This document shows, piece after piece, positions 1-21,830 of a stretch of 64,000 nt of DNA. The position numbers were made by a program, and so were the translations under genes. This stretch comes from Yuukianura sp. NJ FZ-2021 (taxonomy: Eukaryota), in contig CM102290.1 of NCBI GenBank assembly GCA_046563655.1, forward strand, positions 2,418,001 through 2,482,000, given 5' to 3'. The first letter of the stretch is position 1. The number at the start of each line of letters is the position of its first letter. The notes below the pieces were generated by a model, which saw nothing but the letters and a program-made list of their open reading frames with translations, was not told where the DNA came from and did not search any database.

Positions 1-3000
1 TGGTTGGTTCAGCTATGGTGTTGGCCCAGCTACAGCTTAGCGTCCGAGTTCTAACGCCTAATTTCTAAATTTAAGTCCGAACCAAAAGTAGGGTGGGCGG
101 GAGACTTAAATATTTGAAAATTCTCTGTTCTCATAATTGATCTTGATGGGATCCTAAAAGTATCCAGAGAGATCTTATACCTTTTCCTTAAGGTTTTTAG
201 TGTTTTGGTCGGTGAGGCCTCCAGAAGAAAAAAAAAGTTGGTTGGAAATCGGTATAAAAGGACACTAATTTGGAGCCGTAAAACTTTTTTCTTCCTGTTC
301 TTAACGTTTCTTACGTCTCCGCAGAGTGCTCATCCTCCTTTGTGTCCATCATCTTCAGACGTCGTAAAAGAGCGACGCTCAAGCCCCCCTTTCAAAAAAA
401 AGTAGTACTCGGTTCCAGAAGTACAATAAACTGAAACAATGCGTGCAGCAGAGGGCTTAAATTCTTTTGTCCGTGACCGATCATCACATTCGACAGACAC
501 AAGGGGAACTTTTTCCTTTTGAGAAAAGTATGAGATCTCTTACGGAAAAAGTAATCGAGTGCGCGGGAAGAGATCATTTTTGTTTTATACCTCATCAAAA
601 ATACATTAATGAGCAGCAACAGAAGAGTTTTGGAAAAGTAAGCGGGAAAATACGGAACAGAAAAAAAAACGGTTTGCGTTAAGTTTTCTTTTTTGAAAAC
701 TTAGATTTAGACGAGATTGAACTTAAGTCTATATAACTCTGGAACAGTCTGTATGACTGATGACTCTCATTTGGGAAGACATACGTTTTTGTTGGCGTGG
801 GATCTGTTGCATATTAGTGTTTCCAGGTTCACTTTTTAAATCAAAGTTTGTAGCCCTTGATTGAGTCAGTCATTATGATTCACGAGATCTGCTGGACCTA
901 TGTTGCGACCGCTAGGTCCAGCTGACTGACGAAACTTTGAAGTCGCTAGCTGTAGTTAAACCAAAATCATTTTTTTTTTGCAAAAACTGCAATTATGGCG
1001 GACGTTCAACCTATCTAGCAGTCCTGAGCGTGCAGTAGTCTAAAGTTCTCCAAGTACAACGAGTAATTAGCCTTAGCGTGCAATCCTCGACTCCAACGAA
1101 AGTAATCCAGAAAATCCGTTTTGAACTTGCATGCTCTTCATCTTTTGGAGTTGGGCGGGGGAGGATTCAAATTTGAAAAGTGTCTCTGGAAATCTTCAAA
1201 AACTTTCATTCCAAGTCTAATTTTTTTTTTCATTCCGCTCTTTAACTTATTTCCTTATGATTACAAGTGGATGTCTAACTTTTTTTTCAAAAGACGATTC
1301 CATGGCTCTGAGTAATTACGACTTTGAAAGATTCCAATTCTTTTTTAGAGAAGGAATGATATCTTTTTGTGAAGCACTCACACGTTGCCCTGCTGACCCT
1401 GACTCTAGAGCCACAAAATGATATCCAAGGGCTCAAAGGGTACCATTGAACCAGAAGAGAGTACTTTGGTTAGGTTATGTTAGAGTAGGTTGGGGAGGGG
1501 AGTCAAAGGGGGGTCGCAGGAGACGACACTTGAGTCACCCTCTCTCTTTTTACTTCGGTCCAAGAATTTATGATCTTTCTAATCCCAAACGGAAATTACG
1601 TCAAAGGGAATTCATATAAATACGATTTGAAAAGGAGTGCGGGAAGATATAAAAATCCTTATATACTTTTATTTATTACCATTATTCTCTCTCTTCGTTT
1701 TTTTCAAAATAGTGTGTTCCATTCCTACAATATCCAAGTGAGTACTAAATATCAATCTGCATTTTTAATCTCTTCGTCCTATCATTTTTACCCAACAACG
1801 AACGCTCTCTGCTTAATCACCCTTCGATTCCCCCTCAAAAACTAAAGGCTTCCCTGGGACTCTAAGTTTTTGAATTTTTTAAAATTTAAAATTGCGCTGC
1901 TTCCCTCTAAACCTTTCATCTTTCCCTTCGTGTCTTGTGTGTATGTCAAAGGAACATGGCCAGTGAACCAGCAACGCGTGAGCGAATTGGAAACTGGCGG
2001 CCGGGGGAAAGTTGAGACGCTGAGATTTGACTTTCCCTAGCTCCATCCCCCTTATTTTCTCCACAAATAATCACCCTCCCCCCGATCCAAGGGAGGGGAG
2101 GCTGATTTCTCTTTGTTCTTCGATTTTAATCCGATACGCCATGGGCACACTAAACCCTAACGACTTTCTAGCATTAACATCCATTTCCTACGTTTCTTTC
2201 TTAACGAAATCGCTGCATAACGAAAATCGAGTTAAGGGGAAAGTTTATAAGTTTCCAGCCAAGCTAGTTTCAAATTCAAAAGTTTCGAATGTGAGATTAT
2301 GGTATATTTTTGTTTGCAAATTTTTATTTTTGGGATTTTGTTTTTGTAGGTCAATGTTCCGAGTTGTAGCGAAGTTAAAGTTAATGTTAGGTTAGGCCCA
2401 TGCGTTTTCAGGCCCAAAGCTCTTGGAGTTTGTGTAGGTTTATGAAATGGACAGTTGGGTTTTGCGTTTGGAGCGCGAGATTTGAACGTTGTTGGGTTTA
2501 TTAGAAGATAGGAGAGGATCTTTATATTTATTAGATCTCTCTCCCCAACACCAAAGCCTGTCTTCTGTTCCAAACCTAAAAGTTAAAAGTTATTGGGAGT
2601 GAATGACGAAGGATAGGGGAGGGAGAAAGGCTTTTTGTATTGTAGTGGTGGTGGTGGCGGAATTACTCAAAATTAAGTCCATGGGATTTCAAATTCGACA
2701 ATTCCCTGGCTCCCCTCCCGCACTTTCCGCTTGCCAGCTTGCCCGTTCTTGTCGTCCCGCTTCCTTCTTCCGCAGCCTCGTTTTTGAAAAAGTAGTGCAG
2801 TTGAAAAGAAAAGTCCCATTAAGACATAGGACTACTCCACGATATGATATTAGAACCATTATTTTTTGGCAAGAAAGCGGACTTATAACTACTGTGCTTA
2901 GGACAGGGAAAAAGCATAAGCAGCTAGGGAAAAATTTCATCATTTCTTCACATGCAGATCTTTTACTATTCATTATTTTCAACGATTATTTCTTAAAAGC

Positions 3001-6000
3001 GATTTTGAAAAGGAGCGCCTCACAATAACTGTTTACTTTTCAAATAAAGAAGAGGGGGAAGGAAACGTCCATTGATGAACGGTCTATGTGATTAAAGTCG
3101 AAAAAAAAAACTTCTTGCACTTCAAACCAAAAAGTTGTGCTGGGTGTAAGTGACTCTTAGGTTTGAAAAGTTTGAACAGCTTGCCGCGCTTTTTTTTCAG
3201 CAGTAACTACGAAGCAAAGTTGTTTTTCAACAGAAAACGCAAATATTGCAAAATAAACATGTACGTAAAACGAACGGCAAAAATGCACAAAATTGTGAGA
3301 GAATACAAATTTTGCAATTTACGATCTTTTAATTTGTCAAAATCAAAGCTTATAGTTAGGTTTTGCCTGCAGCATTTTATACTTGCACTAATTTTTGCAC
3401 ATGCGGAGTGGCTCTTTCATCATTTTGGCACAAGCGTAGTTTCAAAAAAAATCTTAATTTTCAAATTCTAAATCGCCAGTCATAATCATAAATTGTAATT
3501 AACGTCCCCTTTAGTAGTCCAGTTTGAGTGGGAAAATAAGTCATATCACCCCAACAATTATATAACACACCACTAACTTTTTTTTGCTTTCTTTTGGTTC
3601 GTAATGCTTCTGACGGAAATACGAACTCGAATCACACTCCTAGTCATGATTCATGGGAAGGAGGGGAATTAATGTTTTGGAGGGGGGAAGACATTAATGT
3701 TGGGTGGGGAGGTTCAAGCATATTATGTTTTTTGAGAGTATGGATTGTTTGGACCCCTTCATATTTTTCTATGTTCAATTGAAATCCGCTCCTCTTTTTC
3801 TTAATTATTACACGACAACCAAGTTTTTAATGTAAGTTTGAATCGAACAACAGCAAAAGAGGGGGAAAACTCAAAATTCAATGGCTAGGTTGTTCTTGTT
3901 GTCTCTCTGTCCTAGAACCAGAAGGTTACCAGATGAGAATTTTAGTTTGCTAAGGGAATTGATATCGAAAAGTTGGCCAATGTTAGGCGACGATGGTGAT
4001 GGTTGTCATAAACGAATGAAAAAATAAGAGAGTCAAATGTCACCTAGAAAAGTGACATATGCGTCGAGGCTGTGATGGGAATCAGACTTACTAATCAAAT
4101 GTGGGCATCTTACACAGAAACTGCTTTTTCAATCTTTTTTTAAAATTAAAAAAATAGAACGGAAATCCTTCAATGACACATTTGGTTTCATTTGTGTCTG
4201 TGCAAAAATCTTGAAGGAAAAGAAAAGCTTTGTGGTGGTAGTATTCAAACATGTTTAGAAAAAAAAAGTAGTGAGCGGAAGGATACAAATTTAGAATCTG
4301 CCAATTTCGAAATGGAATCTAAATCTTTAGAATCTGTTAGAGTCAAAGGGGTTATAAAGAGAAAAGGCTTATAATAAAGTCATTCTATTACCAAGTGACA
4401 TTCAAACAGTTTTTAGAAAGCAAAAGAGGAAGCTTGTGAGTTACATTTGAACAGTTTTTTTTTTAAATTCCTGGCGGCTTCGTTCAAATAAGTTTGCCCA
4501 AAAAAACGTCCCTTGTGTAACACTCTGTCCTCTCATATTATTTTGATGAGCTGGACCAATTCCAAGAATTGTGATTGAGTTTAGCTGGATGGTGAATATC
4601 CACCACCGCCGAATTTTTTTCCAAATGATATTTTTGGTTTTAGTATGGAACAAATTAGTGGAGACAGAAGCCAAAATTTACAGTCGATTGACACATGTAT
4701 GTATAGTAAGAAGGAGTAGACAGAGAGACTCTGAAACGGTGTTCAACTAAACTTTTTTTTTCTAAATTGCTGTTTGAACAGTTATTTGAACACAACTTTG
4801 TTCCTTGTTCATACCATAAAGCCATCGCGGATGGAAATGATCTCATTGAGGCGGATGCTTCTGCCAATTAAGATCTTTTCGGATCTCTCGGTCTCGGTTT
4901 GAAAGAAAAAGAAACAGTTTTTTTCTTCTGTGTATTCCCGCTGGTGTACTATTTGATAGTTTCCTATTGGATTCCTAGTAGTTTTTTAAGATTTGTTAGT
5001 AGTTTTTTAGATTTGTAGTAGGTTCTAGTGTCGGCACTTGACAATTACACTTGACTCCTTTCCATGTTTCAATTTCAATAAGCCTCTTCATCCTTGATTC
5101 TCTCCAGATGTGAATCTCTTCTTTACTTTAGAAGTTTTTTGGATCAGAGTCTCACTGTTCAAATAACTGTTTGAAAAAAAAGTGAACTAAATCTGATAGA
5201 TACAAATAAAGTATATTTATAGATTTTTTGGGAACTAATACCTTCTAGTTCTTACTAAACATTCGAAACACTTTGATTCCTCTTCCGTCTTTTTTCCAAT
5301 TTCCAAAGTTTATTTATAGCGTCATCTTTTCTGCTCTTCTTTTTTGATTTTTTGAACACAAACAGTCAATTCAGATATTGAAAAACAACCACTTTTCTTG
5401 GGGTACCCGTAATTTGTACATTACTTTTTGTAAATGGCACAAGTGAATGCGGCATCTTAAAAGGTAGGAAATTTCTGTTTGTCTTTTGGGATTTTTTTTA
5501 GGAATTTGTATTCTGAAATAACAAATTTTCCGGGAAAGATTGATTGATAACGAAATGCAAGCTTTTATCAATTTTAATTTCCAACTTAAATTGAAATCGT
5601 TTTTTCATTCAGATGACTCTGTACTGTTTAAACACACTTGAATTTGAAGAGATTTGCAAAGACTCGAAGTCCTTTAAGTTTCAAGTGTGATGGTAGGATC
5701 GGTTTCAGGTAAACAAGTTTCAAGTATTTGCATTTTGGAAAAACGAAGAGATTTTCATGATCCAACTTTACAAAAAAAAAGTTTGGTTTTTGAAAATTTG
5801 AAGTTTTCTAAGGTTCTCTTCCAAGTAGGCTATATATGCTAGTGTTTATTTGAGGAGTTTTGATGTTATGGTAGTTGAATGAGTTTCCTGATGTTGGAAT
5901 AAACGTAGATGTGGCTGGGATGACTCGTGACATGGCTCCTTGGCCTGTTGAAACTGTTCGATTGGTTGAATTGAAATATTTAAGTGAGTATTTGGAAGTG

Positions 6001-9000
6001 GCATATTGGGCATTAGGGGATCGTTGTCCTTCAACCCTCCCGCTCCTTGTCATTATTCTTCAATCTGTCGGCCCAACCTCTTTGTAAAAAAAAAAAGATG
6101 AATCTGAGGAAGTTTGTTATGGGATTTGAACAGCGCAGTTAGTCAGCAGTTAACAGGATCTCTGTCCAATTCGTCTCTGGACTCAATAAATAATTGACCC
6201 CGTTCCACCCCCTCATGCTCTCCTACGATTGACATCTTTAGCCTAACTTTTGGAACGCCACAACGACAGACCTCTGTCCAAAACATGTCCAATCCTCCGC
6301 CCCACCCTCCTCTCCATCTGTCCTTGCAAACAATCAATCAAGAAGACGCAGACGAGCTCTTTAAATGACAACATAACGCTACCCATAATTTTCTAATTTC
6401 AAATACTCAGTCCATACGAACAGAATTAAAAGGAAAATTTGGCTGTCCACGGATTACGTCATCACCAAAAGTTCTCCTTGTACACTCATGCGTCCTGAAT
6501 TCAAATGGCCAATTCCTAAGAGAACCTAACCCACTAATCCTTTAACTTTAAATGTGTGTGATCATATTTCATCTCAAAGTGCCTTGGATTCAAAATCTGA
6601 CCGATTTTTTGAACTGCTGAGAGCAATTTGGGTGAATTTTTTGAAAAACTATTTGGTTATAGTGATTTGGAAAAGCGGGAGAGAGGGTTGACCGTCCAGG
6701 GTTCAAAAAAGCAACAAATGTCGGCACATTTTTCATCGATCACTCCACCATAAATCTCTGGGCAGAAAAAAGTTCCAATCTAATTTTATTAGCTTGAGTA
6801 ACTCGAGGTTGGAATGTTTTCAGGCCGTTCTTTGTTCGGAAAGTTAGGTTTCGAAGCTTATGCTGGGAATGTTAGGTTTCCATCTAATTGAAAAGACAAG
6901 GGAACCCAAAGCAGACATAGATAGTCATCGAATCTTTATTTTGAATCAGATCTGGGCCGGATGTGGGAGACTTTTATTACCCTGCCCACTCCGTTGTTCA
7001 CAATCCAATGAATGTCCCGCTGGGACAGTCAACCCTGGGACAAGCTGCGCTCACTAGTCGCCCAGGCTAGCGACAAGCTCAGCTAGTCACCGACCGTTGT
7101 AAAACCTTCTCTCGGCCATCGACCATTTGAGTTTCTTGGACTAGCAGCATATTAGATTTAGGTGGCGCATTCTCTCTGCCTCATCAAAGCCAACAGATAA
7201 TGAAGTGGATTTGGACTCCACAAGGGATTGTGTAGTAACTTTTAGGAAAATGCTTATTTATTATTAATGCTTGATTTTCATGGTTATGTAATTTTTGGAG
7301 GTTGGTTGAGGTTGACTGCCTCAGCTAGGATTTTCAACTCAAAAAAAGAAGGAACGATGACAAACCCCCTCGTAGAGACTCCTTTGCTTCAATGTTAATC
7401 TCTGCCTGGTAGTTAAAATTGGACAGAACCTATACTCATAAACTTCATGGTTATGACCTGAGTTAACGACTAGACAAAACAAGGCACACCACCACACCAT
7501 CACTATCACCACAGATTTCTAAACGAAACGTTTGATTTTTTTTTTGAAAACGGGCGCTTAAAATCCCTTCTTATTCTGATGACGACGCTTGAACTGTTTA
7601 AAGGCTTTACACTTTCAAAGTTTTTGGAGGCTTGACCAGACATTTTTTTAACGGAGAGTATAGAGCCATTACTTTGTCAATAATAATATTCATATGACAG
7701 TAATAACATCTGCTGTGGGCTGAGAAGCATAAAGAAAATATGAAAAATCATAAGTTAGAAAAGTACATGGAGGGGGTAAGCCCAAGCACAAATTTCATGG
7801 CAATGAATTTAAAAAAAAAAAGAACAAGAAATAGGAAGGAAAATTTATTAGATGACTTTTAACTTCTTGCTCAAAACAATTCTTCCTACCACCAGAAATT
7901 GAGTGGCGAATGAACATTTAAATTTTTCAATATTAGATTTTATAACTTTTTCTTTTCATTTTTGTACTACATTTTTTTTAATAAAAAAAGATTTGTGTCT
8001 AGACTTTGCGTGTAGATATGTCTATTTCCTGATAGCGTCAATCCTCTGATGTTGCTAATTTTCTGTCTCCTAAGTTTTAACAGCGCTCGATAAACTTCCA
8101 AAACAGTTTTCAATTTTTGCAACTTTTTTGAAAACTAAAAACGTGTTTTAGGTTAAGTTAGTTTTTGGGCTGAAAAAGTGATTTCGGCGGTAAGTTTTGT
8201 TTGGATTTTTTTTTGTTAAAACGTTGTTTTGGTTTAATGACTCCCAGTGGCATGATGGAGCGACATGGGCCTTACCTCCCCTCCATTGTCTCTGCCTGTC
8301 CAAGCGTTGACTGCCTAACTTAAAGTCCTTAACGGAGATGATTAAACGTAATTATTATTCTGGCCATAAGAGGCCTTAAGACAGGAAGCTATTGAGAGTC
8401 TCGAGCACTTTTGGGAACACAGTGCATGTCCTGCCGTGGACGGGGGTAGCAAAGTCCGCACGGTTTTTCAAGGAAATGGTTGTACACTTTTTTGAAAGGT
8501 GGTTGGTTTGGTTGGAAGGTGTCTCTTTTTTGGGGTGTAAATCAGCGATTCATTGGGACTGAACTATCTGGGCGATACATCTTGATAGACACTTTGGTTT
8601 CAAGAACTTTGGGAGCGGAAATCCTGTCCTGTCCTTAATAACACTTCCATCCCCACCCATGGGGGTTAAAGGGCTCTCTCCATCTGATTCTCCATTGTAC
8701 TTATCAATTGTTCAATTTATTTCGATGACTTCCACGCTACACTGCTCCCTTAACTATTTTTCAAACAGAGGCATATTGAGTTTGTGCATTGTCTTCCAAT
8801 TAATGCCCGACTCCATCCTCTTCCCATTCAAAACCAAACGCCAAACTTCATTATAGGGGTGAGGGGGTCAGAGCAGGAAATTAATTCTACGGAAAACGCA
8901 GTATCTTTCACCCCATTCCCGATCCGGGTGAGGGCAGCGGAATTTCAGAATTTATTTTTTTGAAAATGCTGCTGCATGTGTGAAATGCTTGTACGAGGAG

Positions 9001-9202
9001 CAGTACAAAGCAACCAAGGTGCTGGCGAATGAGTTACAAAAGGTCAATGACCTCTTGACACTTTTGAAGGTTTAGTGTGCTCGAAGTCTAACATAATCCC
9101 GCGATAGATAGTTTGGAAGTATCTAGGGGTGACGTTTGGAAAAAAATTTATAATCAGTGTAAATTGAAATTGAATTGAATTTTTTTATTTGTGAATTTGC
9201 AG

Positions 9203-12200
9203 GGAAGGAAGGACCGACAGGTAGTCTTCCGTCGTACCAAGAATCCGGAGCTGAGGATCGGATTGCTCATATCCTGTCGGAAGCCAACCACGTTCTCCAG
9301 CGAAATCAGTTTGGAGGAGTGGGGATGACGTATGAGTCGGTTTGTGAAGACAATGCAGGGACAGGAGATGACAAGTCTCCGTCTAGCAACAATAACGGGT
9401 CAAACAACAATGGACAAGGACCACCTTCTCCGTCAAGCTCATCGAGCCGAGATCGGAGACTGCGCAAGTACGAGAACGACGACATTTCACAGGAACAATT
9501 GGCTCGAATTTATCAAGAACAACTTGCCAAACACATTTTGTCACACGGAGTGTCGGAAGCTGAGCCCCGCTTACCCACTGAAGCCTTCCAAAGGTACGAG
9601 TCAAGTTACAATTTTTATAAGTTTTCACACAATTTTTTTAATTCTTTGAAGAAATTGGATCCTGTATGGCCACCACAAAGTTATCCGTGGAAATGAAACT
9701 TCAAAATATAATTTTTAAAATTTTTGTTTTGCAGTATGTTGTTTCCGCATCTATTCGGTGGATCACTTCTCGAGTCCGAAGAAATCCGAATGATTTTGGA
9801 TGCCTATCACCGCGGATTTTCCAAAATCGCTGCCGCATCTTCCAGTCCCCACTTTCGACCTGTCGTATTTCAACCGAACACTGGACCTACTACAGTCAAC
9901 GGAATTGGAAGTAGTGCCCAAGACCTGTCTCTACCCAAGCGACCATCTCCTGACCTGAATGAAAACGACGAACAGGTAAGTCATTCATCACCTTCTCCTT
10001 GAGCGGCGCCAAATTTAAAAAAAAAACGTTAAAAAAAGTTTATCTTTTGATAAACCCACACCGCGTTCACACTCCATCCCTAGTTCAATAAAACGTTAAA
10101 TTTCTCACCTCTGTATGGATGTTGATGTTGTAGAAAAAGTGCTCATAAAGTGGTTTTGATTGAATACTAATTAGGCTGTAGTGACTGGTTGATTGATGTC
10201 GGAGGACCAGGGAACACCTTTCCCTGGCACTACCTCGTATGCTTTACTGTGGAAATGAAACGATGAAATATAGGCAACAGAAGGAAAACATGATACTCGT
10301 AATGGCTAAATTCCCATGAGACTACGCCAGTATTCCTTTTCACAGTACATTTTTTTTCTTCGTTTTTTCAACTCTAATCCATGTACAACTATAAACATTT
10401 TAAGATGGGAGTGATGGGTTGTTGGGATTTGAAAAGGTTGATTTTGTGTAGCGATTGAATTTGACGTTAATTTCAATTCCAAAAATCAGCTTTGGCAATT
10501 TACCAAAAACCTAAAGAGCAATATCTGTAAATCACTCAAGCCAGTATACACTTGGCTTTGCTCATTCCCATTCCCACCACCACCAAAAACACATACGCTA
10601 AGAACAACTTATAGTCGGCCTACGACCACTCAGAGGCCGTAACTCATAAACAATTAAGGTAGTAGTGGTGGAACTTGTCATGGAGTGGCCATTGTGTCCG
10701 CCATATTTAAAGAAATCCCAGAGATTTACCACATTACATGAGGATCTACAGAATATCCGCCAATGGTTGTCATCATTCCTCATTTTCTTTAGTATTTCAT
10801 AGTTCAGTAGCAAACTCTCAAACAATTCAAACCAAAAAAAATTACCTTTACTTACCGTTTTTTAGTGAAACTCAAAATTTCGTTTGAATAAAAAATACAA
10901 AATATTTTTGAATATTTTGCCTGTACTGAAGTCAACCTTCTGGAAATATTGGGATATGTTGGCCATACAAAGTTGTAGTATGACCAAATTTGGCCATGGT
11001 GACTAAAGGTCTGTCATAACTTATCATGAACGCTTAAAACCCCAACTACCAAGTTGTAAATCCGAGGATTTATTAGGCATGAGGACTGAGGATTTCCTCA
11101 AAAATTAGTAGTTGAACTATGTCCGAGAGATACCAGTTCCTTAACTTTGGTCTCTCCTACTAAACAGAACCTATTATCGTTTAGTTCTAATGGTTTTTGC
11201 CTACTTTATTGATATGTTCTCCCACTTCAGTATGATAATTAGCCATTGAGATCGGATTTGTAGGTTGTATTTATGTTAAAAGACAGTCAATGACCACAGT
11301 ATAATTGTCCGCGCAACTCTTTCAATCTTTTTTAAACTGTCAACTTTAATTTAATTGTTCTTTTAATTTTTTTTCAGATGGAGAGTGATGATGCAACCGT
11401 GGACTCCGCCGTTCGGCCAGTTCCAAGTGCGTTTTCCCTAGTTCGACCAAAGGGGGGTGCTAGCGGGGGTGGGGAACAAAGCGGCGGTTCTGGAGCTCCG
11501 TCTCCGTTGGACTCCATTTTGCATCCCAGTGGAGACGACTCTTCAAATGCTTCACCGCTTCAACGCATGGCATCAATTACCAATTCCCTAATCTCTCAGG
11601 TACATTTTCAATTATACTTTCAAAATTTGGTCACTTCAGACTGCCCAACGAAAAATTTACACTGACCTTTAAAAATTTAACAAAGACGTTTTTTTTTCTG
11701 TACAGCCATCAACACCCACCGTGTCATCGCCAAATCAACGCCCACTCAAAGCCGTTCTTCCGCCAATTACGCAGCAACAGTTTGACCAATACAACAACCT
11801 CAATACAGAAGACATTGTAAGGAAGGTGAGCTTCTCACTTCCAATTTTACTTTAATTTACTTTACACCCATTTTTGCTCAAAGTTTAATTTCAAATTTTG
11901 ACCGCGAGTGAAATTTTGGACGCCATAAAATTTCTTTTCCCGAACACATTCTTTTACACAAAGACGCAACTCTCCTATCTCAGAATCTAATCTATCAAAC
12001 AAGTTTGACGTATTTTCATTGACAATTAATTTAGTAGTGGTGTGAAAAATTTGGGAGCGTCAAGGTTGTGATTCCCGAAAACTAATTTTTTTTTACAATG
12101 ACTTGAACAATCAACCTAAAATTTCAAGACCATAAAATTTCAACGTTTAATTTCAAATTGCTTTTTTTTTATTTCAGGTAAAGGAGCAGTTGAGTCAGTA

Positions 12201-14508
12201 CTCAATTTCTCAGCGACTGTTTGGTGAATCTGTCCTTGGCCTGTCGCAAGGGTCAGTGAGTGATCTCTTAGCACGACCGAAACCGTGGCACATGCTAACC
12301 CAGAAAGGCCGTGAGCCCTTCATTCGTATGAAGATGTTTCTGGAAGATGAAAATGCTGTTCATAAACTTGTGGCATCCCAGTACAAAATTGCACCAGAAA
12401 AACTCATGAGAACAGGTGGATATTCTGGAAATCCATGTTAGTCCGCTCTCAATTCAAGGGATTGTTTGCTTTCACTTTTTAAAAATTTCAATTTCTAACT
12501 TTTCATTTTAACACGATTTTGTGTTCTTGTTGATGGTTTGAGAGAGGAACTTCTCAATACCAAGGTTCAAAAAAAATTTCAAAAGTGAATTGACGATTTT
12601 TCTTTACTCTCTTGGCAGCTCCGAATGCTCCAAATTCAAAACCACCGCCAAAACCATCCGACGTTCCGAAAGCACCACTGGAATCTTCCCCGGTTCTGCC
12701 GATCCAACCGACTCTCATTTCTCCAGTTCCAGTCGTTCACGAAGTTTTGAAAAAGTCACCAATGTCTCAGTGCCGAACAGCAACCAGTCCAGTTTTAAAT
12801 TTGCGCTCCAATCATGGCTGCCTTCCGCAGCAACCCTCTGTATACGAAATGGCAGCTTTGACGCAGGATTTGGATACTCAACTCATAACTACCAAAATTA
12901 AAGAAGCTTTACTAGCTAACAACATTGGGCAAAAGGTACATTTTTGGCAAATTTCGAATTAAAACTACGTCATTTTATGAAAGAATATAATTAACTAATC
13001 GGTTGACTTTGGTTGATTGCAGATCTTTGGCGAAGTGGTGCTTGGTTTGTCACAAGGATCAGTGAGCGAGCTTTTATCAAAACCGAAGCCATGGCATATG
13101 CTGTCCATTAAAGGGCGGGAACCCTTCATTCGAATGCAACTTTGGCTCGCGGATCCGCTCAATATTGAGCGTCTTCAGCATTTGAAGAATGAGAGGCGGG
13201 AAGCAAATAAGCGGAAGCGTGGACTCACTCCGGGCGGAACTCCGCTCGATTCTTATACTGCTGGGACTCAGGGTTCGTCTGATGCGTCAAACGATTCTCC
13301 AAATGAATCTTACAGTCCTGGAAGTGGGAACACAGTACCACCAAGTAAAAAACAACGGGTAACGATTTTGGAAAATTTGTCTTTTTTTGAAAATTGAATA
13401 GGTTTGAACGATTTTTCCACTCGTAGGTTTTATTTACGGATGAGCAGAAAGAGGCCCTCAAGTTAGCATTCTCCCTGGATTCCTACCCCAATGTCTCAGC
13501 TATTGAATTCCTTGGAAGGGAACTAGGCCTATCTTCCAGAACAATCACAAATTGGTTCCACAATCATCGCATGCGCTTAAAACAACAAACTTCCAATCCA
13601 TCACTCCAAGGTCAGTACTTAACTAAAGTTTTTGTTTCGATGGTCAGAGGTCAGACAATTCATGCCATTTTGTTTTTCCAGAATCCTCCTTGTCCTCTCA
13701 ACAGCCGTTTGATCCAATTCAGTTCCGACTCCTTCTGCACCAGAGATTAATTGAAATGCACAAGTATAATTCGTTACCACTGTTTGGAGGTCACAACAAG
13801 ACTTTGTCAGATGAAGGTCTCGACCTCACAGTCAGTAACAATCCATCCCGAATTCCATCGGACTCTGAAGACGATGAATTTGACGACGGCCATGAAGAAG
13901 ATGTGGGTTTTCACTTTTGTAAAACTGCGTTAAAATTACTTTAAATTAATTTTCTATATTGTAGGGGAGCTCTGATGGGGGTGACTCTGCTACGTCAACT
14001 GGGAGCAAAGACTTGATTCGAAAACGGAAGTCAATACGGAAAATAGGGTTAAATTTAGCATGTGGACAACCCAGACCAAGTAATCCTCTCTCTGAACTTT
14101 TTTTTTAAATCAATGTTCCTTACCGGTTTCCAAAACATTGTTTTTGTCTTAGTCAAATTCTGTGGTGGTACTTCTGGGTCGTCTCGTCGGAAACCTGTCG
14201 CTCCTCAGTGGCTCAATCCATCTTGGCATGACGATAGCGACGATGATGAAGTGCTCATCAACGGAGTCTGCGTAGTTCAAAATCCCCTCAATTACGACAA
14301 ATATGGCGGCAAGAAACCATGCGATCCTCATCTTCACAAAGTCAAATTGAAGGGCGGGAAAGGTGACCTTGAGGGTGAAGAGAGTAATGGTCGCAGAAGT
14401 GAGTTACTACCTCATCATCGAGACGCCATAAATCACCGGGATATCAAAGACTCCGGTCCGATTAGAGCGGAAATGGATTACGGTTCCGAAAATGACTGTT
14501 CCGATTAA
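9203..14508 (+). CDS. ct: Homeobox protein cut / CUX-like, 3' portion (5' exons lie upstream of the window)
   Basis: GT-AG exons in a consistent frame: 9203-9593, 9735-9975, 11378-11599, 11706-11825, 12178-12436, 12619-12935, 13023-13358, 13427-13610, 13682-13902, 13965-14079, 14153-14508 (TAA). There are two CUT domains ([92 protein letters not shown]). A Cut-class homeodomain follows ([19 protein letters not shown]...[16 protein letters not shown]), then a C-terminal RRKPVAPQW motif. Confidence 0.95.
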
Positions 14509-16360
14509 AATTTCGGAACAGAATAACATTTAAAAATTATTAAGGGCCAATCGTTCATCTTCTGTCGTCAGGAACAGTAAGTGTTTCGCTCGGGATTCTT
14601 CGGAAACCTGTCGTTATAAATTCGTCATCAATCAAATCTCAACTCCTCGGATTTTAATTCCGACTCTTTTCGTTAACCGTTTGTTATTATTATTAATCAT
14701 TATTATTATATTCATAAATTAATCATTGTACTAGGTAGGTTAAGCTTCGGCTTTCAACCACATTTTTGACTACCGTTCTATTGGAAACTGTTTAGGGTGT
14801 AACTAAAACTTTTAAGATTATTATTGTGCTAAAAACGAATGGTTAAAGTTAGTGTTAAACTTGTGGAAGTTTCTTGTGCAGATGCTCCGTTTGGAAATTA
14901 CTTTGCTCTGCGTCTGCCCTTACGGAAGAAGACGCAAGCAAAAAAAAAAAACAACAACATAATTTTGTGATAATGATGACTTTACCGTGACGGCGTAGTT
15001 TCATAGCTAATTACTCTTATACACTGATTTTAGGTAAAGTACGGACAAATACCAAAATGTTTTTATTATTAATTACGATTGAAAGGAAACTGTTTTAACT
15101 CCGATTTTTAGTCATTTTAGCACGTAGGACGCGTACTACACACTATTAATCTTAGTTCGTTATTTCTTTGAAAATATACCTCCAACAACCACTAAATCTA
15201 ATTGTAATTACTTAACTTTTAAGGTAATTTATGATTAATTCTACTACTACTATCAATTACTGTAACTGCTAAAAAAACTCTTTGTATGTTAAGGCTTAAC
15301 AACAACGTTTTAGTCCATTTTTACTTATTATTATCTAACCTATTTGACTATCCATTATTATTGTAAACTGCTGCATTACCTAGGGATGGAATATGTTAAA
15401 CGAAAGTACCGCTTCTCCATTTTGAATTAGAAATGTCAAATTCACAAAAAAAAACCGCCGCCAAAAATGTTTTAAATTTAACCGGTAATCAATGAACGAT
15501 TTATTCTATGTACCAAAAACACGGCTTTACCAAAAAATCTCTCCGGAACAACCACCCGATTTGCCGATATCGGAGTGAATTTGCTTTAATCAAATCTTGA
15601 ACACGGTTTTTATCATCCAGTTCTAAAAAACATGTTCACAAATCTGAGAACAGAATTTAAGTTACCGCGGCCGGATCTCTTTTTTTTGAATTTTGCTTTC
15701 TCTGTGTATACGATAAACAGTGGTGGATTTGTGAAAGTCAAAATTTGTTGTCTTTTTTTCTACCACCTTGCTCACGTAAACTAACGTCAGTGAGCAGTTT
15801 TTTAAAACAGGAAAATCTGTTAAAATTTTTTGTTTTTTTTTTTCTGAAAAACATCAGGATTCTAAAACTATTTTTTCCATTCCCGAATCAAAATTCTCAT
15901 CTCCCTGAAAAGACTGCTTCCAGACTGTCGGCCGAAGACACACTACTACTTTTCACGTTTCCATCTTCTCATCACCTTCAAAATTTCTAAAAATGAAAAG
16001 AATCTTGCATTGTCCCGCGATGTTACCATGACCAAATTTAAGACAAGTCAAGAGCCAAAAAGAAAGAAGACATACACATGCGCACTTGAGGCAGCACTAC
16101 GAAGCCTCTCATCTCTTCCAAGAAGCTGCCAACCAGTATTTGTCCTCACTGTGCATGAACATTTCCCGAAAACAACAAGGCACCACCAATTACCACTACT
16201 AAGACTATTTACTAATGAATGCTTAAGGAGTTGCTTCTGTTTGTCCGTCATCTTTATTAAGTATTTTGATCAAAAGGTACTTAAACTGTTAAAGTGCAGT
16301 CCCTTCATCATCATTTTGTTGCAAGTAATATTCCTAGCTCCTTCTTGATGGAAAAATAAA
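14509..16360 (+). other. Probable long AU-rich 3' UTR of cut
   Basis: AT-rich non-coding sequence follows the cut stop codon, with an AATAAA at ~16355. The true transcript end is unknown. Confidence 0.45.
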
Positions 16361-16689
16361 ACTGGTGTTAACTATTTGTTTCAATTTCTACGGACGAAAT
16401 TCATTCATGGACATTTCATTTTTTCCACACTTTTTTTTGTCACAAATTCCGTGATGGGTTGTTGACAACAACTTGTTGTGCAACTTGAGGAGACCTTCCG
16501 AATAACACAAATTCGAAGCCGAGTCGAAATTTTTAGGAACTTTTGAAAACGGCGTCCTTGAATTTGTTTATTTGTGAGTTGAAAAAGTTGGGTCTAAAAG
16601 TGGTCACTTATGAATGGACTATTCCACAAACTTTTTCGTCCCATTCAATAAATATAATTTCGTCCCTTTTTGAAATTTAAAATAGAAGT

Positions 16690-19600
16690 TTTGAAAATTT
16701 ATATCTCGCGAACGGAAAGCGATAGAGACCTAATCTCTTCGCGAAAAACTTTCAATAAATATGAAGAATTTTTACAAATTTTAAAAACTCCTAAATCGAA
16801 CATCAAGTTTTTCGTCAAATTTTGAAAAAAACCATGGACTATAGTCCATGGATTTTTTCGAAATTTGGCCAAAATCTGAGGGTACCTTTTTATAATTTCT
16901 AAAAATACTATATATTTTTGTGAATTCAGGAGTGAAGAGTTTACCTTTCTATCTCTTTCCATTCCCGAGATATGAATTTTGAAAGTTGTTAAAAATTAAA
17001 ATGAAATTCTGAAAATTTATATCTCGTGAACGGAAAGCGATAGAGAGCTAATCTCTTCACGAAAAGCTTTCAAAAAATATGAAGAATTTTTACAAATTTT
17101 GAAAACTCCAAAATCGAACAACAAGTTTTTCGTCAAATTTTGAAAAAAAGCAGCATGGACTATAGTCCATGGATTTTTTCGAAATCTGGCCAAAATCTGA
17201 GGGTACCTTTTTATAATTTCTAAAAATACTATATATTTTTGTGAATTCAGGAGTGAAGAGTTTACCTTTCTATCTTTTTTCCATTCCCGAGATATGAATT
17301 TTGAAAGTTGTTAAAAATTAAAATGAAATTTTGAAAATTTATATCTCGTGAACGGAAAGCGATAGAGAGCTAATCTCTTCACGAAAAGCTTTCAAAGCAT
17401 TATTAAGAATTTTTACAAACTTTAAAAACTCCAAAATCGAACATCAAGTTTTTCGGCAAATTTTGAAAAAACCATGGACTATAGTCCATGGATTTTTTCG
17501 AAATTTGGCCAAAATCTGAGGGTACCTTTTTATAATTTCTAAAAATACTATATATTTTTGTGAATTCAAAAGAGAAGAGTTTACCTTTCTATCTCTTTCC
17601 ATTCCCGAGATATGAATTTTTAAAGTTTTTGAAAATTAAAATGAAATTCTGAAAATTTATATCTCGTGAACGGAAAGCGATAGAGAGCTAATCTCTTCAC
17701 GAAAAGCTTTCAAAAAATATGAAGAATTTTTACAAATTTTGAAAACTCCAAAATCGAACAACAAGTTTTTCGTCAAATTTTGAAAAAAAGCATGGACTAT
17801 AGTCCATGGATTTTTTCGAAATTTGGCCAAAATCTGAGGGTACCTTTTTATAATTTCTAAAAATACTATATATTTTTGTGAATTCAAAAGAGAAGAGTTT
17901 ACCTTTCTATCTCTTTCCATTCCCGAGATATGAATTTTTAAAGTTTTTGAAAATTAAAATGAAATTCTGAAAATTTATATCTCGTGAACGGAAAGCGATA
18001 GAGAGCTAATCTCTTAACGAAAAGCTTTCAAAAAATATGAAGAATTTTTACAAATTTTGAAAACTCCAAAATCGAACAACAAGTTTTTCGTCAAATTTTG
18101 AAAAAAGCATGGACTATAGTCCATGGATTTTTTCGAAATCTGGCCAAAATCTGAGGGTACCTTTTTATAATTTCTAAAAATACTATATATTTTTGTGAAT
18201 TCAGGAGTGAAGAGTTTACCTTTCTATCTCTTTCCATTCCCGAGATATGAATTTTGAAAGTTGTTAAAAATTAAAATGAAATTTTGAAAATTTATATCTC
18301 GTGTACGGAAAGCGATAGAGAGCTAATCTCTTCACGAAAAGCTTTCAAAGCATATTAAGAATTTTTACAAACTTTAAAAACTCCAAAATCGAACATCAAG
18401 TTTTTCGTCAAATTTTGAAAAAAACCAAGGACTATAGTCCATGGATTTTTTCGAAATTTGGCCAAAATCTGAGGGTACCTTTTTATAATTTCTAAAAATA
18501 CTATATATTTTTGTGAATTCAAAAGAGAAGAGTTTACCTTTCTATCTCTTTCCATTCCCGAGATATGAATTTTTAAAGTTTTTGAAAATTAAAATGAAAT
18601 TCTGAAAATTTATATCTCGTGAACGGAAAGCGATAGAGAGCTAATCTCTTCACGAAAAGCTTTCAAAAAATATGAAGAATTTTTATAAATTTTGAAAACT
18701 CCAAAATCGAACAACAAGTTTTTCGTCAAATTTTGAAAAAAAGCATGGACTATAGTCCATGGATTTTTTCGAAATCTGGCCAAAATCTGAGGGTACCTTT
18801 TTATAATTTCTAAAAATACTATATATTTTTGTGAATTCAGGAGTGAAGAGTTTACCTTTCTATCTCTTTCCATTCCCGAGATATGAATTTTGAAAGTTGT
18901 TAAAAATTAAAATGAAATTCTGAAAATTTATATCTCGTGAACGGAAAGCGATAGAGAGCTAATCTCTTCACGAAAAGCTTTCAAAAAATATGAAGAATTT
19001 TTACAAATTTTGAAAACTCCAAAATCGAACAACAAGTTTTTCGTCAAATTTTGGAAAAAGCATGGACTATAGTCCATGGATTTTTTCGAAATCTGGCCAA
19101 AATCTGAGGGTACCTTTTTATAATTTCTAAAAATACTATATATTTTTGTGAATTCAGGAGTGAAGAGTTTACCTTTCTATCTTTTTCCATTCCCGAGATA
19201 TGAATTTTGAAAGTTGTTAAAAATTAAAATGAAATTTTGAAAATTTATATCTCGTGAACGGAAAGCGATAGAGAGCTAATCTCTTCACGAAAAGCTTTCA
19301 AAGCATTATTAAGAATTTTTACAAACTTTAAAAACTCCAAAATCGAACATCAAGTTTTTCGGCAAATTTTGAAAAAAACCATGGACTATAGTCCATGGAT
19401 TTTTTCGAAATTTGGCCAAAATCTGAGGGTACCTTTTTATAATTTCTAAAAATACTATATATTTTTGTGAATTCAAAAGAGAAGAGTTTACCTTTCTATC
19501 TCTTTCCATTCCCGAGATATGAATTTTTAAAGTTTTTGAAAATTAAAATGAAATTCTTGAAAATTTATATCTCGTGAACGGAAAGCGATAGAGACTAATC

Positions 19601-21830
19601 TCTTCACGAAAAGCTTTCAAAAAATATGAAGAAAATTTAGGAATTTTGAAAACTCTAAAATTGAACATCAAGTTTTTCGTCAAATTTTGAAAAAAGAAAA
19701 ACCTGGGATTATAGTGCATGGATTTTTTTTTCGAAATTTGGACAAAATCTGAGGGTACTTTTTTATAATTTCTAAAAATACTATATATTTTCGTGAATTC
19801 AGGAGTGTAGAGTTTACCTTTCTATCTCTTTCCATTCCCGAGATATGAATTTTGAAAGTTTTTGAAAATTAAAATGAAATTCTGAAAATTTATATCTCGT
19901 GAACGGAAAGCGATAGAGAGCTAATCTCTTAACGAAAAGCTTTCAAAAAATATGAAGAATTTTTACAAATTTTGAAAACTCCAAAATCGAACAACAAGTT
20001 TTTCGTCAAATTTTGAAAAAAAGCATGGACTATAGTCCATGGATTTTTTCGAAATCTGGCCAAAATCTGAGGGTACCTTTTTATAATTTCTAAAAATACT
20101 ATATATTTTTGTGAATTCAGGAGTGAAGAGTTTACCTTTCTATCTCTTTCCATTCCCGAGATATGAATTTTGAAAGTTTTTGAAAATTAAAATGAAATTT
20201 TGAAAATTTATATCTCGTGAACGGAAAGCGATAGAGAGCTAATCTCTTCACGAAAAGCCTTCAAAAAATATGAAGAATTTTTACAAATTTTAAAAACTCC
20301 AAAATCGAACATCAAGTTTTTCGTCAAATTTTGAAAAAAACCATGGACTATAGTCCATGGATTTTTTCGAAATTTGGCCAAAATCTGAGGGTACTTTTTT
20401 AAAATTTCTAAAAATACTCCATATTTTTGTGAATTCAGGAGTGAAGAGTTTACCTTTCTATCTCTTTCCATTCCGGAGATATGAATTTTTAAAGTTTTTG
20501 AAAATTAAAATGAAATTTTGAAAATTTATATCTCATGAACGGAAAGCGTTAGTGAGCTAATCTCTTCGGGAAAAAGTTTCAAAAAATATGAAGAATTTTT
20601 AGGAATTTTGAAAACTCCAAAACCGAACATCAAGTTTTTCGTCAAATTTTGAAAAAAACCATGGACTATAGTCCATGGATTTTTTCGAAATTTGGCCAAA
20701 ATCTGAGGGTACCTTTTTATAATTTCTAAAAATACTATATATTTTCGTGAATTCAGGAGTGAAGAGTTTACCTTTCTATCTCTTTCCATTCCCGAGATAT
20801 GAATTTTGAAAGTTTTTGAAAATTAAAATGAAATTTTGAAAATTTATATCTCGAGGACGGAAAGCGATAGAGAGCTAATCTCTTCACGAAAAGCTTTCAA
20901 AAAACATGAAGAATTTTTAGAAATATTGAAAACTCCAAAATCGAACATCAAGTTTTTCGTCAAATTTTGAAAAAAACCATGGACTATAGTCCATGGATTT
21001 TTTCGAAATTTGGCCAAAATCTGAGGGTACCTTTTTATAATTTCTAAAAATACTATATATTTTTGTGAATTCAAAAGCGAAGAGTTTACATTTCTATTGC
21101 TTTTAATTCCCGAGTTAAGAATTTTGAAAGTTTTTGAAAATTAAAATGAAATTTTGAAAATTTATATCTCGTGAACGGAAAGCGATAGAGAGCTAATCTC
21201 TTCACGAAAAGCCTTCAAAAAATATGAAGAATTTTTACAAATTTTAAAAACTCCAAAATCGAACATCAAGTTTTTCGTCAAATTTTGAAAAAAACCATGG
21301 ACTATAGTCCATGGATTTTTTCGAAATTTGGCCAAAATCTGAGGGTACCTTTTTATAATTTCTAAAAATACTATATATTTTTGTGAATTCAAAAGCGAAG
21401 AGTTTACCTTTTTATTGCTTTTAGTTCCCGAGTTATGAATTTTCAAAGTTTTTGAAAATTAAAATAAAATTTTGAAAATTTTTATCTCAGGAATGGAAAG
21501 CGATAGAGATCTATTCTTTTCGCGAAAAAGTTTCAAAAGAGATGAAGAAATTTTAGAAATATTGAAAACTCCAAAATGGAACATCAAGTTTTTCGTCAAA
21601 TTTTGAAAAAAACCATGGACTATAGTCCATGGTTTTTTGTGAAATTTGGTCAAAATCTGAGGGTACCTTTTTAAAATTTTTAAAAATACTACATATTTTT
21701 GTGAATTTAGCGGCGAAGAGTTTACCTCTCTATCACCTTTCGTTCCCGAGATATGAATTTTCCAAGTTTTTGAAAATTAAAATGAAATTTTAAAATTTTT
21801 ATCTGAGGAATGGAAAGCGATAGAGATCTA
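16690..21830. repeat. Tandem array (satellite): 16 full copies plus a partial copy of a ~318-bp internally palindromic monomer
   Basis: The central palindrome CATGGACTATAGTCCATG, or a close variant, recurs near 16841, 17160, 17480, 17798, 18116, 18434, 18751, 19069, 19387, 19710, 20031, 20349, 20667, 20985, 21303 and 21621. The intervening sequence is near-identical between copies. Confidence 0.98.

Follow-up and report, generated by a model that had tools for sequence, protein, structure and literature searches.

The tandem array between the cut and CDC5L genes probably belongs to a young family of dispersed euchromatic satellites, like the 1.688X or Rsp-like repeats of Drosophila. The window, by which we mean the whole 64,000-nucleotide stretch analysed, holds a head-to-tail run of non-coding monomers longer than 100 bp, and many other short arrays of the same monomer, with variable ends, lie among genes elsewhere in the genome. 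Each monomer consists of two head-to-head copies of a ~150-bp arm, the product of an old duplication, which meet at a 20-bp palindrome.

Tandem Repeats Finder gave the array a period of 318 bp with 93% matches (Table 1). The 318-bp tandem organization described in the original prediction stands, with a start ~23 bp to the left of the position first assigned (16690); the left edge lies in an A/T-rich junction spacer and the right edge 39 bp into a left arm. A public DNA contig of another haplotype bridges the left flank and the first monomer, and the left junction is therefore not an assembly error. The higher-order repeat in monomers 2–9 has a lag-3 identity of 97.5–99.4%. The palindrome first noticed at the centre of the leading monomer proved to be perfect; across the 16 monomers the full 20-mer is exact in eight and its inner 18-mer in 14. 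The A6/T6 tracts said to flank it are present but do not touch it in most copies, one A-A mismatch intervening, and no 10-bp periodicity of A-tracts was detected.

The flanking genes had been correctly named, as CUT and homeodomain exons and CDC5L were identified on the two sides. The cut stop codon lies 2.2 kb upstream of the array, and the last open frame is the putative terminal exon of this gene. An AATAAA had been proposed as the cut poly(A) signal; the motif exists, but given the other AATAAA motifs at 14504 and 16647, and a last cut frame that ends at 14508, nothing links it to cut. Five open frames between cut, the array and CDC5L had no Pfam match, so no extra gene was found in this interval.

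Table 1. Features of the window around the cut–CDC5L array (positions counted from the first nucleotide of the window)
Feature	Position	Strand	Remark
3' exons of cut: third CUT domain, homeodomain, last open frame	13017..14508	+	
AATAAA named earlier as putative cut poly(A) signal	16355..16360	+	
Tandem array, 318-bp palindromic monomer	16667..21830	+	16.2 copies
Left arm of first full monomer, 148 bp	16694..16841	+	
20-bp perfect palindrome, monomer centre, first of 16	16832..16851	+	spacing 317–323 bp
Right arm of first monomer, ~139 bp	16842..16980	+	~75% identical to left-arm reverse complement
A/T-tract spacer between monomers, ~31 bp	16981..17011	+	loop of tail-to-tail fold-back axis
Monomers 2–9	17012..19559	+	three-monomer higher-order repeat
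CDC5L start codon	22722..22724	+	0.9 kb downstream of array

That each monomer folds back on itself was borne out: one monomer reached -96.4 kcal/mol as RNA (z -9.16, 0 of 100 shuffles as good) and -49.3 as DNA (z -6.49), and the junction between monomers also folds, forming a second axis (161 nt, z -8.75, 0 of 200 shuffles). The longest unbroken helix is 15 bp in the monomer and 18 bp in the dimer. On recomputation the outer arms paired at the same 42 of 49 positions as counted before, but the gapless pairing claimed for the outer arms did not extend to the full arm alignment; in the consensus of the family described below, 105 of 139 aligned arm positions are Watson-Crick pairs, with one 9-bp gap. 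The arms evolve separately, and there is no clear indication that RNA pairing is under selection. In a comparison across arrays the arms cluster by side, left and right forming separate groups; at mismatched positions pairing is restored by eight of 24 new alleles, which is the chance rate, and two of three double changes are compensatory. The two strands of the cut–CDC5L array fold alike (-96.1 versus -96.9 kcal/mol). The family consensus has eight G-U positions on one strand versus two on the other (p 0.11), and the G-U-richer strand folds better in 16 of 21 monomers, which are related and hence not independent.

A genome search identified at least 503 monomer matches (40 of 188 candidates scored), and 235 exact copies of the 18-bp centre, the control giving none. 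At least 42 arrays were found, at least 32 of them on C8, the chromosome that hosts the cut–CDC5L array, and ten on C1, C4 and C7, some of the latter as long and young as those on C8. C4 also has a PIF1-type frame, which was not linked to the repeat. Enrichment was assessed with a 32-mer that is equally frequent in C8 and other monomers (0.35 versus 0.33); in its complete list C8, which makes up 15.5% of the assembly, has 46 of the 66 sites and 18 of the 25 arrays (p 4e-10 relative to that share). Array density is 1.18 per Mb on C8 versus 0.084 elsewhere (~14-fold), and the C8 arrays are spread over 2.3–5.4 and 8.2–14.4 Mb. Arrays occur in either orientation, between genes and inside introns, and no large heterochromatic block of the repeat was seen in the assembly. 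Identity is 0.89–0.997 within arrays (above 0.93 in 19 of 21) and ~0.92 between them, the within-array value being the higher in 19 of 21 arrays, a pattern of concerted evolution. Some neighbouring arrays fall into two starred clades, one joining the cut–CDC5L array with an array 170 kb away and the other joining three arrays within 170 kb; over 78 pairs from 13 C8 arrays, distance and divergence showed no relation (rho -0.15, p 0.23). There was no chromosome-specific subfamily among 21 arrays, the C8 label changing five times, a number as low in 61 of 500 shuffles.

The centre and one arm recur as a module in a larger dispersed tandem unit of 0.8–2.2 kb. Scoring 40 of 151 candidates for this sister repeat gave at least 52 matches on C2, C3, C6 and C14, concentrated on C2 and C3, and none on C8; as it clusters on chromosomes other than C8, local spread appears to be a habit of the family. 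Its 2.2-kb units are circularly permuted between loci, its modules often have damaged centres, and the part that the C2/C3 repeat has in common with the monomer is the right arm. The right arm is 0.79–0.80 identical to the sister module and 0.70–0.81 identical to its own left arm, lower in most arrays, which makes the fold-back no younger than this relationship and speaks against a recent origin of the palindrome from a single-armed module.

We consider it unlikely that the arrays are a non-autonomous transposon, either a tandemly inserted fold-back MITE or repeats in the interior of a Helitron-like carrier. The monomer is shaped like a MITE consisting of inverted repeats alone, it recurs as a module within a larger dispersed unit, and some DNA transposons typically cluster locally, as this repeat does. 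However, despite the inverted arms, no shared outer termini or flanks were found in any of the 21 arrays compared, whose start and end phases are scattered over the monomer. A target-site duplication of constant length was likewise absent from these arrays, 13 having none and eight having direct repeats of 4–6 bp at chance level, and the near-single copies that we inspected lack clean ends and grade into partial neighbours. The flanks, which are unrelated among the 21 arrays, and the permutation of the larger sister unit between loci argue against a Helitron carrier. No array was present in 60 evenly spaced 10-kb samples of the genome (600 kb); the abundant, dispersed TE-derived repeat that the original prediction had named as a refuting case is thus matched in its dispersal, but not in abundance (0 of 60 samples) or in TE ends and target-site duplications.

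The concentration on C8 raises the matter of what this chromosome is, and its gene content suggests that it is likely to be the ancestral hexapod X. Four of the six located genes that are X-like in a cockroach table are on C8 (p 0.007), and among 17 unselected C8 genes four are X-like, where the baseline is 5.3% (p 0.011). Three cockroach-X genes are on C2 and none of six on C3, and the X-like share of C8 (4/17) versus that of C2 and C3 together (1/12) is not significantly different (p 0.29). The part of the table used has 24,962 rows, the paper having 28,141 genes. The C8 genes cut, Cdc5, rdgC, UBE2G-type and guanylate-cyclase-alpha were left out of the test, as were sv, toy, FAM210 and AAR2, since they have no row in this part; the MCCC2 row was excluded because the C2 gene resembles PCCB. 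The pangolin family was looked for and not found.

It is conceivable, though we think it improbable, that C8 is an X marked by a satellite that supplies its own double-stranded RNA whenever an intronic or read-through transcript crosses a monomer. The siRNAs from the fold-back, together with gene-adjacent arrays and the invariant dyad, would on this remote reading aid the machinery of dosage compensation or of paternal X loss in identifying the X. The satellite would have no relation to 1.688X, and the lineage parted from flies more than 400 million years ago; C2 likewise has ancestral-X genes, and the sister repeat there could mark a second X. The ~14-fold density and the strong single-chromosome enrichment (18 of 25 arrays), the placement of C8 arrays beside and inside genes along the chromosome, the X-like genes counted above and a centre invariant among array consensuses are all in keeping with this, as are the 1.688X repeats themselves, which are described as arrays near genes on the X with a role in X recognition (PMC11228850). 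However, the X identity of C8 derives from homology, with three cockroach-X genes also on C2; the ten arrays on C1, C4 and C7 include equally long and young ones; and the sister repeat clusters as strongly on other chromosomes, so that the C8 enrichment needs no function. If X-marking were nonetheless true, Drosophila would not be alone in having satellites by which the X is recognized with the help of small RNAs, and a defined sequence that can be knocked down would be available in springtails. Our literature search (titles and abstract openings) found no paper on springtail satellites or X recognition.

In the consensus sequences of the 21 arrays the centre has 0 of 20 variable positions versus 79 of 298 outside (p 0.003), and for G/C positions the counts are 0 of 10 versus 34 of 83 (p 0.008). 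This invariance may reflect selection, and self-repair of the palindrome could likewise maintain it. A signal at the DNA level, in which the dyad would be a dimeric-protein site or a cruciform nucleation point under selection (for instance as an insulator, pairing or segregation site) and the arms passengers, seems to us very doubtful. The invariant G/C positions, the many arrays between genes, and the exact or near-exact centres that persist in the sister repeat and in copies with only 78% similarity to the family would suit such a signal; however, the diverged copies were found by their centre, and its conservation in them is thus subject to ascertainment. Damaged centres are frequent in sister modules, and the centre does vary inside arrays (25 variant cells over the 20 positions). 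No viral contig matched the centre.

Lastly, a dedicated hairpin-RNA gene like hp-CG4068/esi-2 (described as 20 palindromic repeats of ~260 nt; PMC11840564), in which the array would be one transcript from cut or CDC5L, diced to act on a specific target, is highly improbable, and the cut read-through locus of the original prediction is weakened with it: the outline of tandem palindromic repeats is similar, the folding is strong with a long fold-back structure and there are expressed genes on both sides, but the array is one of more than 40 similar ones and so not a discrete locus, it has no strand preference, its arms are drifting apart, it matches no coding sequence in the window or in the 600 kb sampled, and none of its 117 weak Rfam matches to hairpin families reaches the gathering score.

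A dispersed euchromatic satellite is the reading we prefer, and the palindromic, cruciform-capable satellite that had been offered as the second option fits such a tandem family of fold-back monomers. In the observed pattern, new sites have received pieces of arrays that lack fixed ends, and most of this copying is inside one chromosome. It probably took place through break repair or template switching that started at the two hairpin or cruciform tips. The 42 array ends lie closer to the two symmetry axes than a uniform placement would give (mean 29 versus 40 bp, p 0.0008), a test that may be biased because both axes adjoin A/T tracts. An alternative route would be reinsertion of excised circles, although only one of 21 arrays has complementary ends of the kind that a simple reinserted circle should leave. 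Growth and homogenization of each new array follow by unequal exchange, as the higher identity within arrays and the three-monomer repeat show, and the probable X identity of C8 may add to accumulation there. The hairpin would be a by-product of DNA symmetry; intronic arrays would necessarily enter pre-mRNA and may yield incidental siRNAs. If neutral, the family offers a compact case of a palindromic module that became a satellite spreading within one chromosome, with its sister repeat doing likewise elsewhere.

A monomer of two diverged, oppositely oriented subunits is also found in Tribolium brevicornis TBREV and in MITE-derived satellites. TBREV is a large satellite of heterochromatin whose monomer is much longer; the arrays here are short and euchromatic, and we found no MITE ends. 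The tandem organization in 9–20 palindromic units of ~260–320 bp that form imperfect hairpins is shared with hp-CG4068/esi-2 (PMC11840564, PMC10317233); esi-2, however, is described as one cluster with a common transcript and Dicer-2-dependent siRNAs, whereas the present repeat occupies more than 40 sites and is known from DNA, the material of all five public sequencing runs listed. As reported for Cast1-9 of Tribolium castaneum, there are bursts through gene-rich regions, exchange between chromosomes, insertion at A/T tracts and circles proposed as carriers (PMC11610590); in that account the Tribolium X has longer, not more, arrays, in contrast to the ~14-fold density on one chromosome here, and our monomer differs in being palindromic. 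The 1.688X (359-bp) and Rsp-like repeats are likewise AT-rich, of similar monomer size and in short arrays among genes (PMC11228850, PMC7403614); they too are concentrated on one chromosome, which here is probably the X, and share with the family variable junctions and homogenization within arrays. Compared with these Drosophila repeats as described, the present family has dozens rather than hundreds of arrays and no large heterochromatic block in the assembly, and its monomer folds back, so that one transcript would suffice for double-stranded RNA.

The array, which lies between cut on its left and CDC5L on its right (an exon of the latter has its best match, at 60%, in Folsomia candida, as would suit a springtail), belongs to a dispersed satellite of the euchromatin whose monomer is palindromic, in a genome of 98.7 Mb that includes eight large contigs of 6.6–15.5 Mb. 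Its GC content is 28%, compared with ~38% in its surroundings, and each monomer consists of two arms, the left one 148 bp long, on either side of a 20-bp palindrome, plus a 31-bp A/T spacer after the right arm; in the family consensus 105 of 139 aligned arm positions are paired, with one 9-bp gap in the alignment. The original prediction had described every monomer as folding back on itself, and this was borne out: folding was far above that of shuffled sequences (z −9.16 as RNA, −6.49 as DNA), the central palindrome was correct on re-examination, and a recount again paired 42 of 49 outer-arm positions. The monomer–monomer junction forms a second hairpin (z −8.75), monomers 2–9 form a three-monomer higher-order repeat, and a publicly available DNA contig likewise joins the left flank to the first monomer, despite gaps and 21 letter differences from the assembly.

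Coordinates of features in the window and in other stretches of the same genome (L-numbers, local coordinates; G000 is the assembly, C its contigs; the window is G000:C8:2418001-2482000)
Stretch	Contig	Coordinates	Feature
Window	C8	16667–21830	Tandem array, 16.2 copies of 318-bp unit, 93% matches
Window	C8	16832–16851	Central palindrome
Window	C8	14504, 16355, 16647	AATAAA, candidate poly(A) signals for cut
Window	C8	45894–46451	Two 16/32-bp repeat blocks, opposite orientation, 250 bp apart; small fold-back-like element
L026	C1, 7.85 Mb	2660–2790, 4210–4340	Pieces of apparent other repeat with outer-arm-like short motifs, flanking an array
L060, L174	C5, 10.51 and 10.64 Mb		Pair of decayed monomers separated by 133 kb
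L088	C2 end	G000:C2:9331706-9332026	Activin-like gene
L089	C6 start	G000:C6:39984-40304	Activin-like gene, strand opposite to L088
L116	C8, 11.75 Mb	1227–4268	Piwi/Argonaute gene
L118	C8, 13.25 Mb	3161–6732	Piwi/Argonaute gene
L126	C3, 4.26 Mb	5180–5857	Plexin-like Sema-domain exon
L129	C3, 6.5 Mb	9–5722	5.7-kb satellite of 117-, 132- and 142-bp units, 274- and 391-bp higher orders
L133	C3, 9.51 Mb	5641–6294, 9045–9806	Intron-free RelA/SpoT-domain frame a few kb from divergent RNA polymerase second-subunit frame
L158	C4, 7.51 Mb	8030–10000	Intronless PIF1-type helicase frame, at least 657 aa

Two readings had been offered, an endo-siRNA hairpin locus and a satellite; the folding suits both, and dispersal as a family upheld the satellite and went against a discrete hairpin-RNA locus. 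Incidental siRNAs may arise from the satellite. A genome search with one monomer gave at least 503 matches (the best 40 of 188 candidates scored), and the union of this and two probe searches placed the monomer in at least 32 arrays on C8, the chromosome bearing the window, and 10 on C1, C4 and C7, with three decayed copies on C3 and C5. The arms of the C5 pair are identical, which points to a recent segmental duplication, and the pair therefore counts as one event. The inner 18-mer of the centre occurs 235 times, 47 on C1–C6 (67.6 Mb; zero on C2 and C6) and 188 on C7, C8 or small contigs (3 of these listed individually; at least 7 on C7). A 32-mer chosen for equal frequency in C8 and non-C8 monomers, with its sites listed completely, was found once on C1, 12 times on C4, 7 on C7, 46 on C8 and nowhere else in the assembly; counted by array, 18 of 25 lie on C8 (p 4e-10), a 14-fold enrichment per Mb. 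Sixty evenly spaced 10-kb stretches (20 on C8, 40 elsewhere) held zero arrays and three weak arm remnants, all on C2, with none in the reversed control. The 200 kb sampled of C8 includes two Piwi/Argonaute genes, which hints at an expansion of that gene family.

When the window's array was compared with 20 arrays drawn from among the strongest matches (135 complete monomers), between-array identity was ~0.92 regardless of chromosome and was exceeded by within-array identity in 19 of 21. The arrays have no fixed ends: their flanks are unrelated and they end at many monomer phases. Complementary ends occur in one of the 21. The 42 ends sit closer to the two symmetry axes than expected by chance (p 0.0008), but the A/T tracts present at each axis may exaggerate this figure. 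A MITE or Helitron cargo would be at odds with these ends and with the lack of a constant target-site duplication among the 21 arrays; the satellite may have reached new sites through repair events at the tips of hairpins, or via circles. Two starred clades unite neighbouring arrays at most 170 kb apart, and across all C8 array pairs distance and divergence were not correlated (p 0.23). One array lies between consecutive exons of an L-type calcium channel gene, antisense to it, two on C4 appear intronic judged by translations, and among seven arrays with an identified neighbour gene, four share its orientation and three oppose it. The flanks of the L026 array perhaps reflect insertion guided by microhomology. 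The C4 PIF1-type frame is possibly a Helitron.

A larger sister repeat (period ~800–880 bp, with a 2.2-kb form on C3 whose start point differs between loci) contains the centre and right arm and, at two C3 loci, full palindromic monomers; decayed copies on C3 and C2 have ~700 bp in common at 78%. Among the best 40 of 151 candidates scored, a set thereby biased toward close copies, its unique part gave at least 52 matches on C2, C3, C6 and C14, with C8 yielding none; as these matches lie on other chromosomes, chromosome-restricted clusters are a habit of the whole group. In the arm tree left arms cluster with left and right with right, the sister module adjoining the right arms, which argues that the fold-back is old and that the arms are not being re-made alike. 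Elsewhere on C3, the L129 satellite is unrelated to this family, and the RelA/SpoT and RNA polymerase segment is possibly horizontally transferred or virus-derived.

To gauge selection on RNA structure, changes were counted by pairing state: variation affected 47 of 210 paired, 18 of 48 mismatched and 9 of 40 unpaired spacer and gap positions; pairing was restored by 8 of 24 new alleles at mismatched positions, and two of three double changes were compensatory. G-U pairs numbered 8 vs 2 between strands (p 0.11); the strand thus favoured gives the better fold in 16 of 21 monomers, but not in that of the window's array. The centre behaves differently from the rest of the monomer, with none of its 20 positions varying among array consensuses vs 79 of 298 outside (p 0.003).

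C8 is probably the X, judging from the genes it carries, which are provisionally named from Pfam matches and characteristic features. Twelve homologues of fly element-F genes were located, six on C8 (two Pax6, two plexins, Cadps and maverick), four on C2 and one each on C6 and C4. The X is reported to be homologous across insects and springtails (10.1101/2023.04.19.537501). In the accessible part of the cockroach table (PMC6894488; X-like being log2 M/F < −0.5), six of the element-F genes are X-like, four on C8 and two on C2 (p 0.007); Pax6 is autosomal there. Of the unselected genes in that part, 4 of 17 on C8 are X-like vs a 5.3% baseline (p 0.011), compared with none of six on C3 and one of six on C2; C8 did not differ significantly from C2 and C3 together (p 0.29), and these counts are not fully independent, since some genes are linked. 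The Sema-domain exon on C3, where a plexin cytoplasmic domain was not found, is possibly a truncated plexin paralogue. The activin-like genes of C2 and C6 have identical domain translations, and the two contigs may belong to a single chromosome or have a common end duplication.

The folding resembles that of esi-2 (hp-CG4068; PMC11840564, PMC10317233), a discrete locus, unlike the family here, and the layout is similar to that of Drosophila 1.688X (PMC11228850) and Rsp-like repeats (PMC7403614) and of the Tribolium Cast satellites (PMC11610590).
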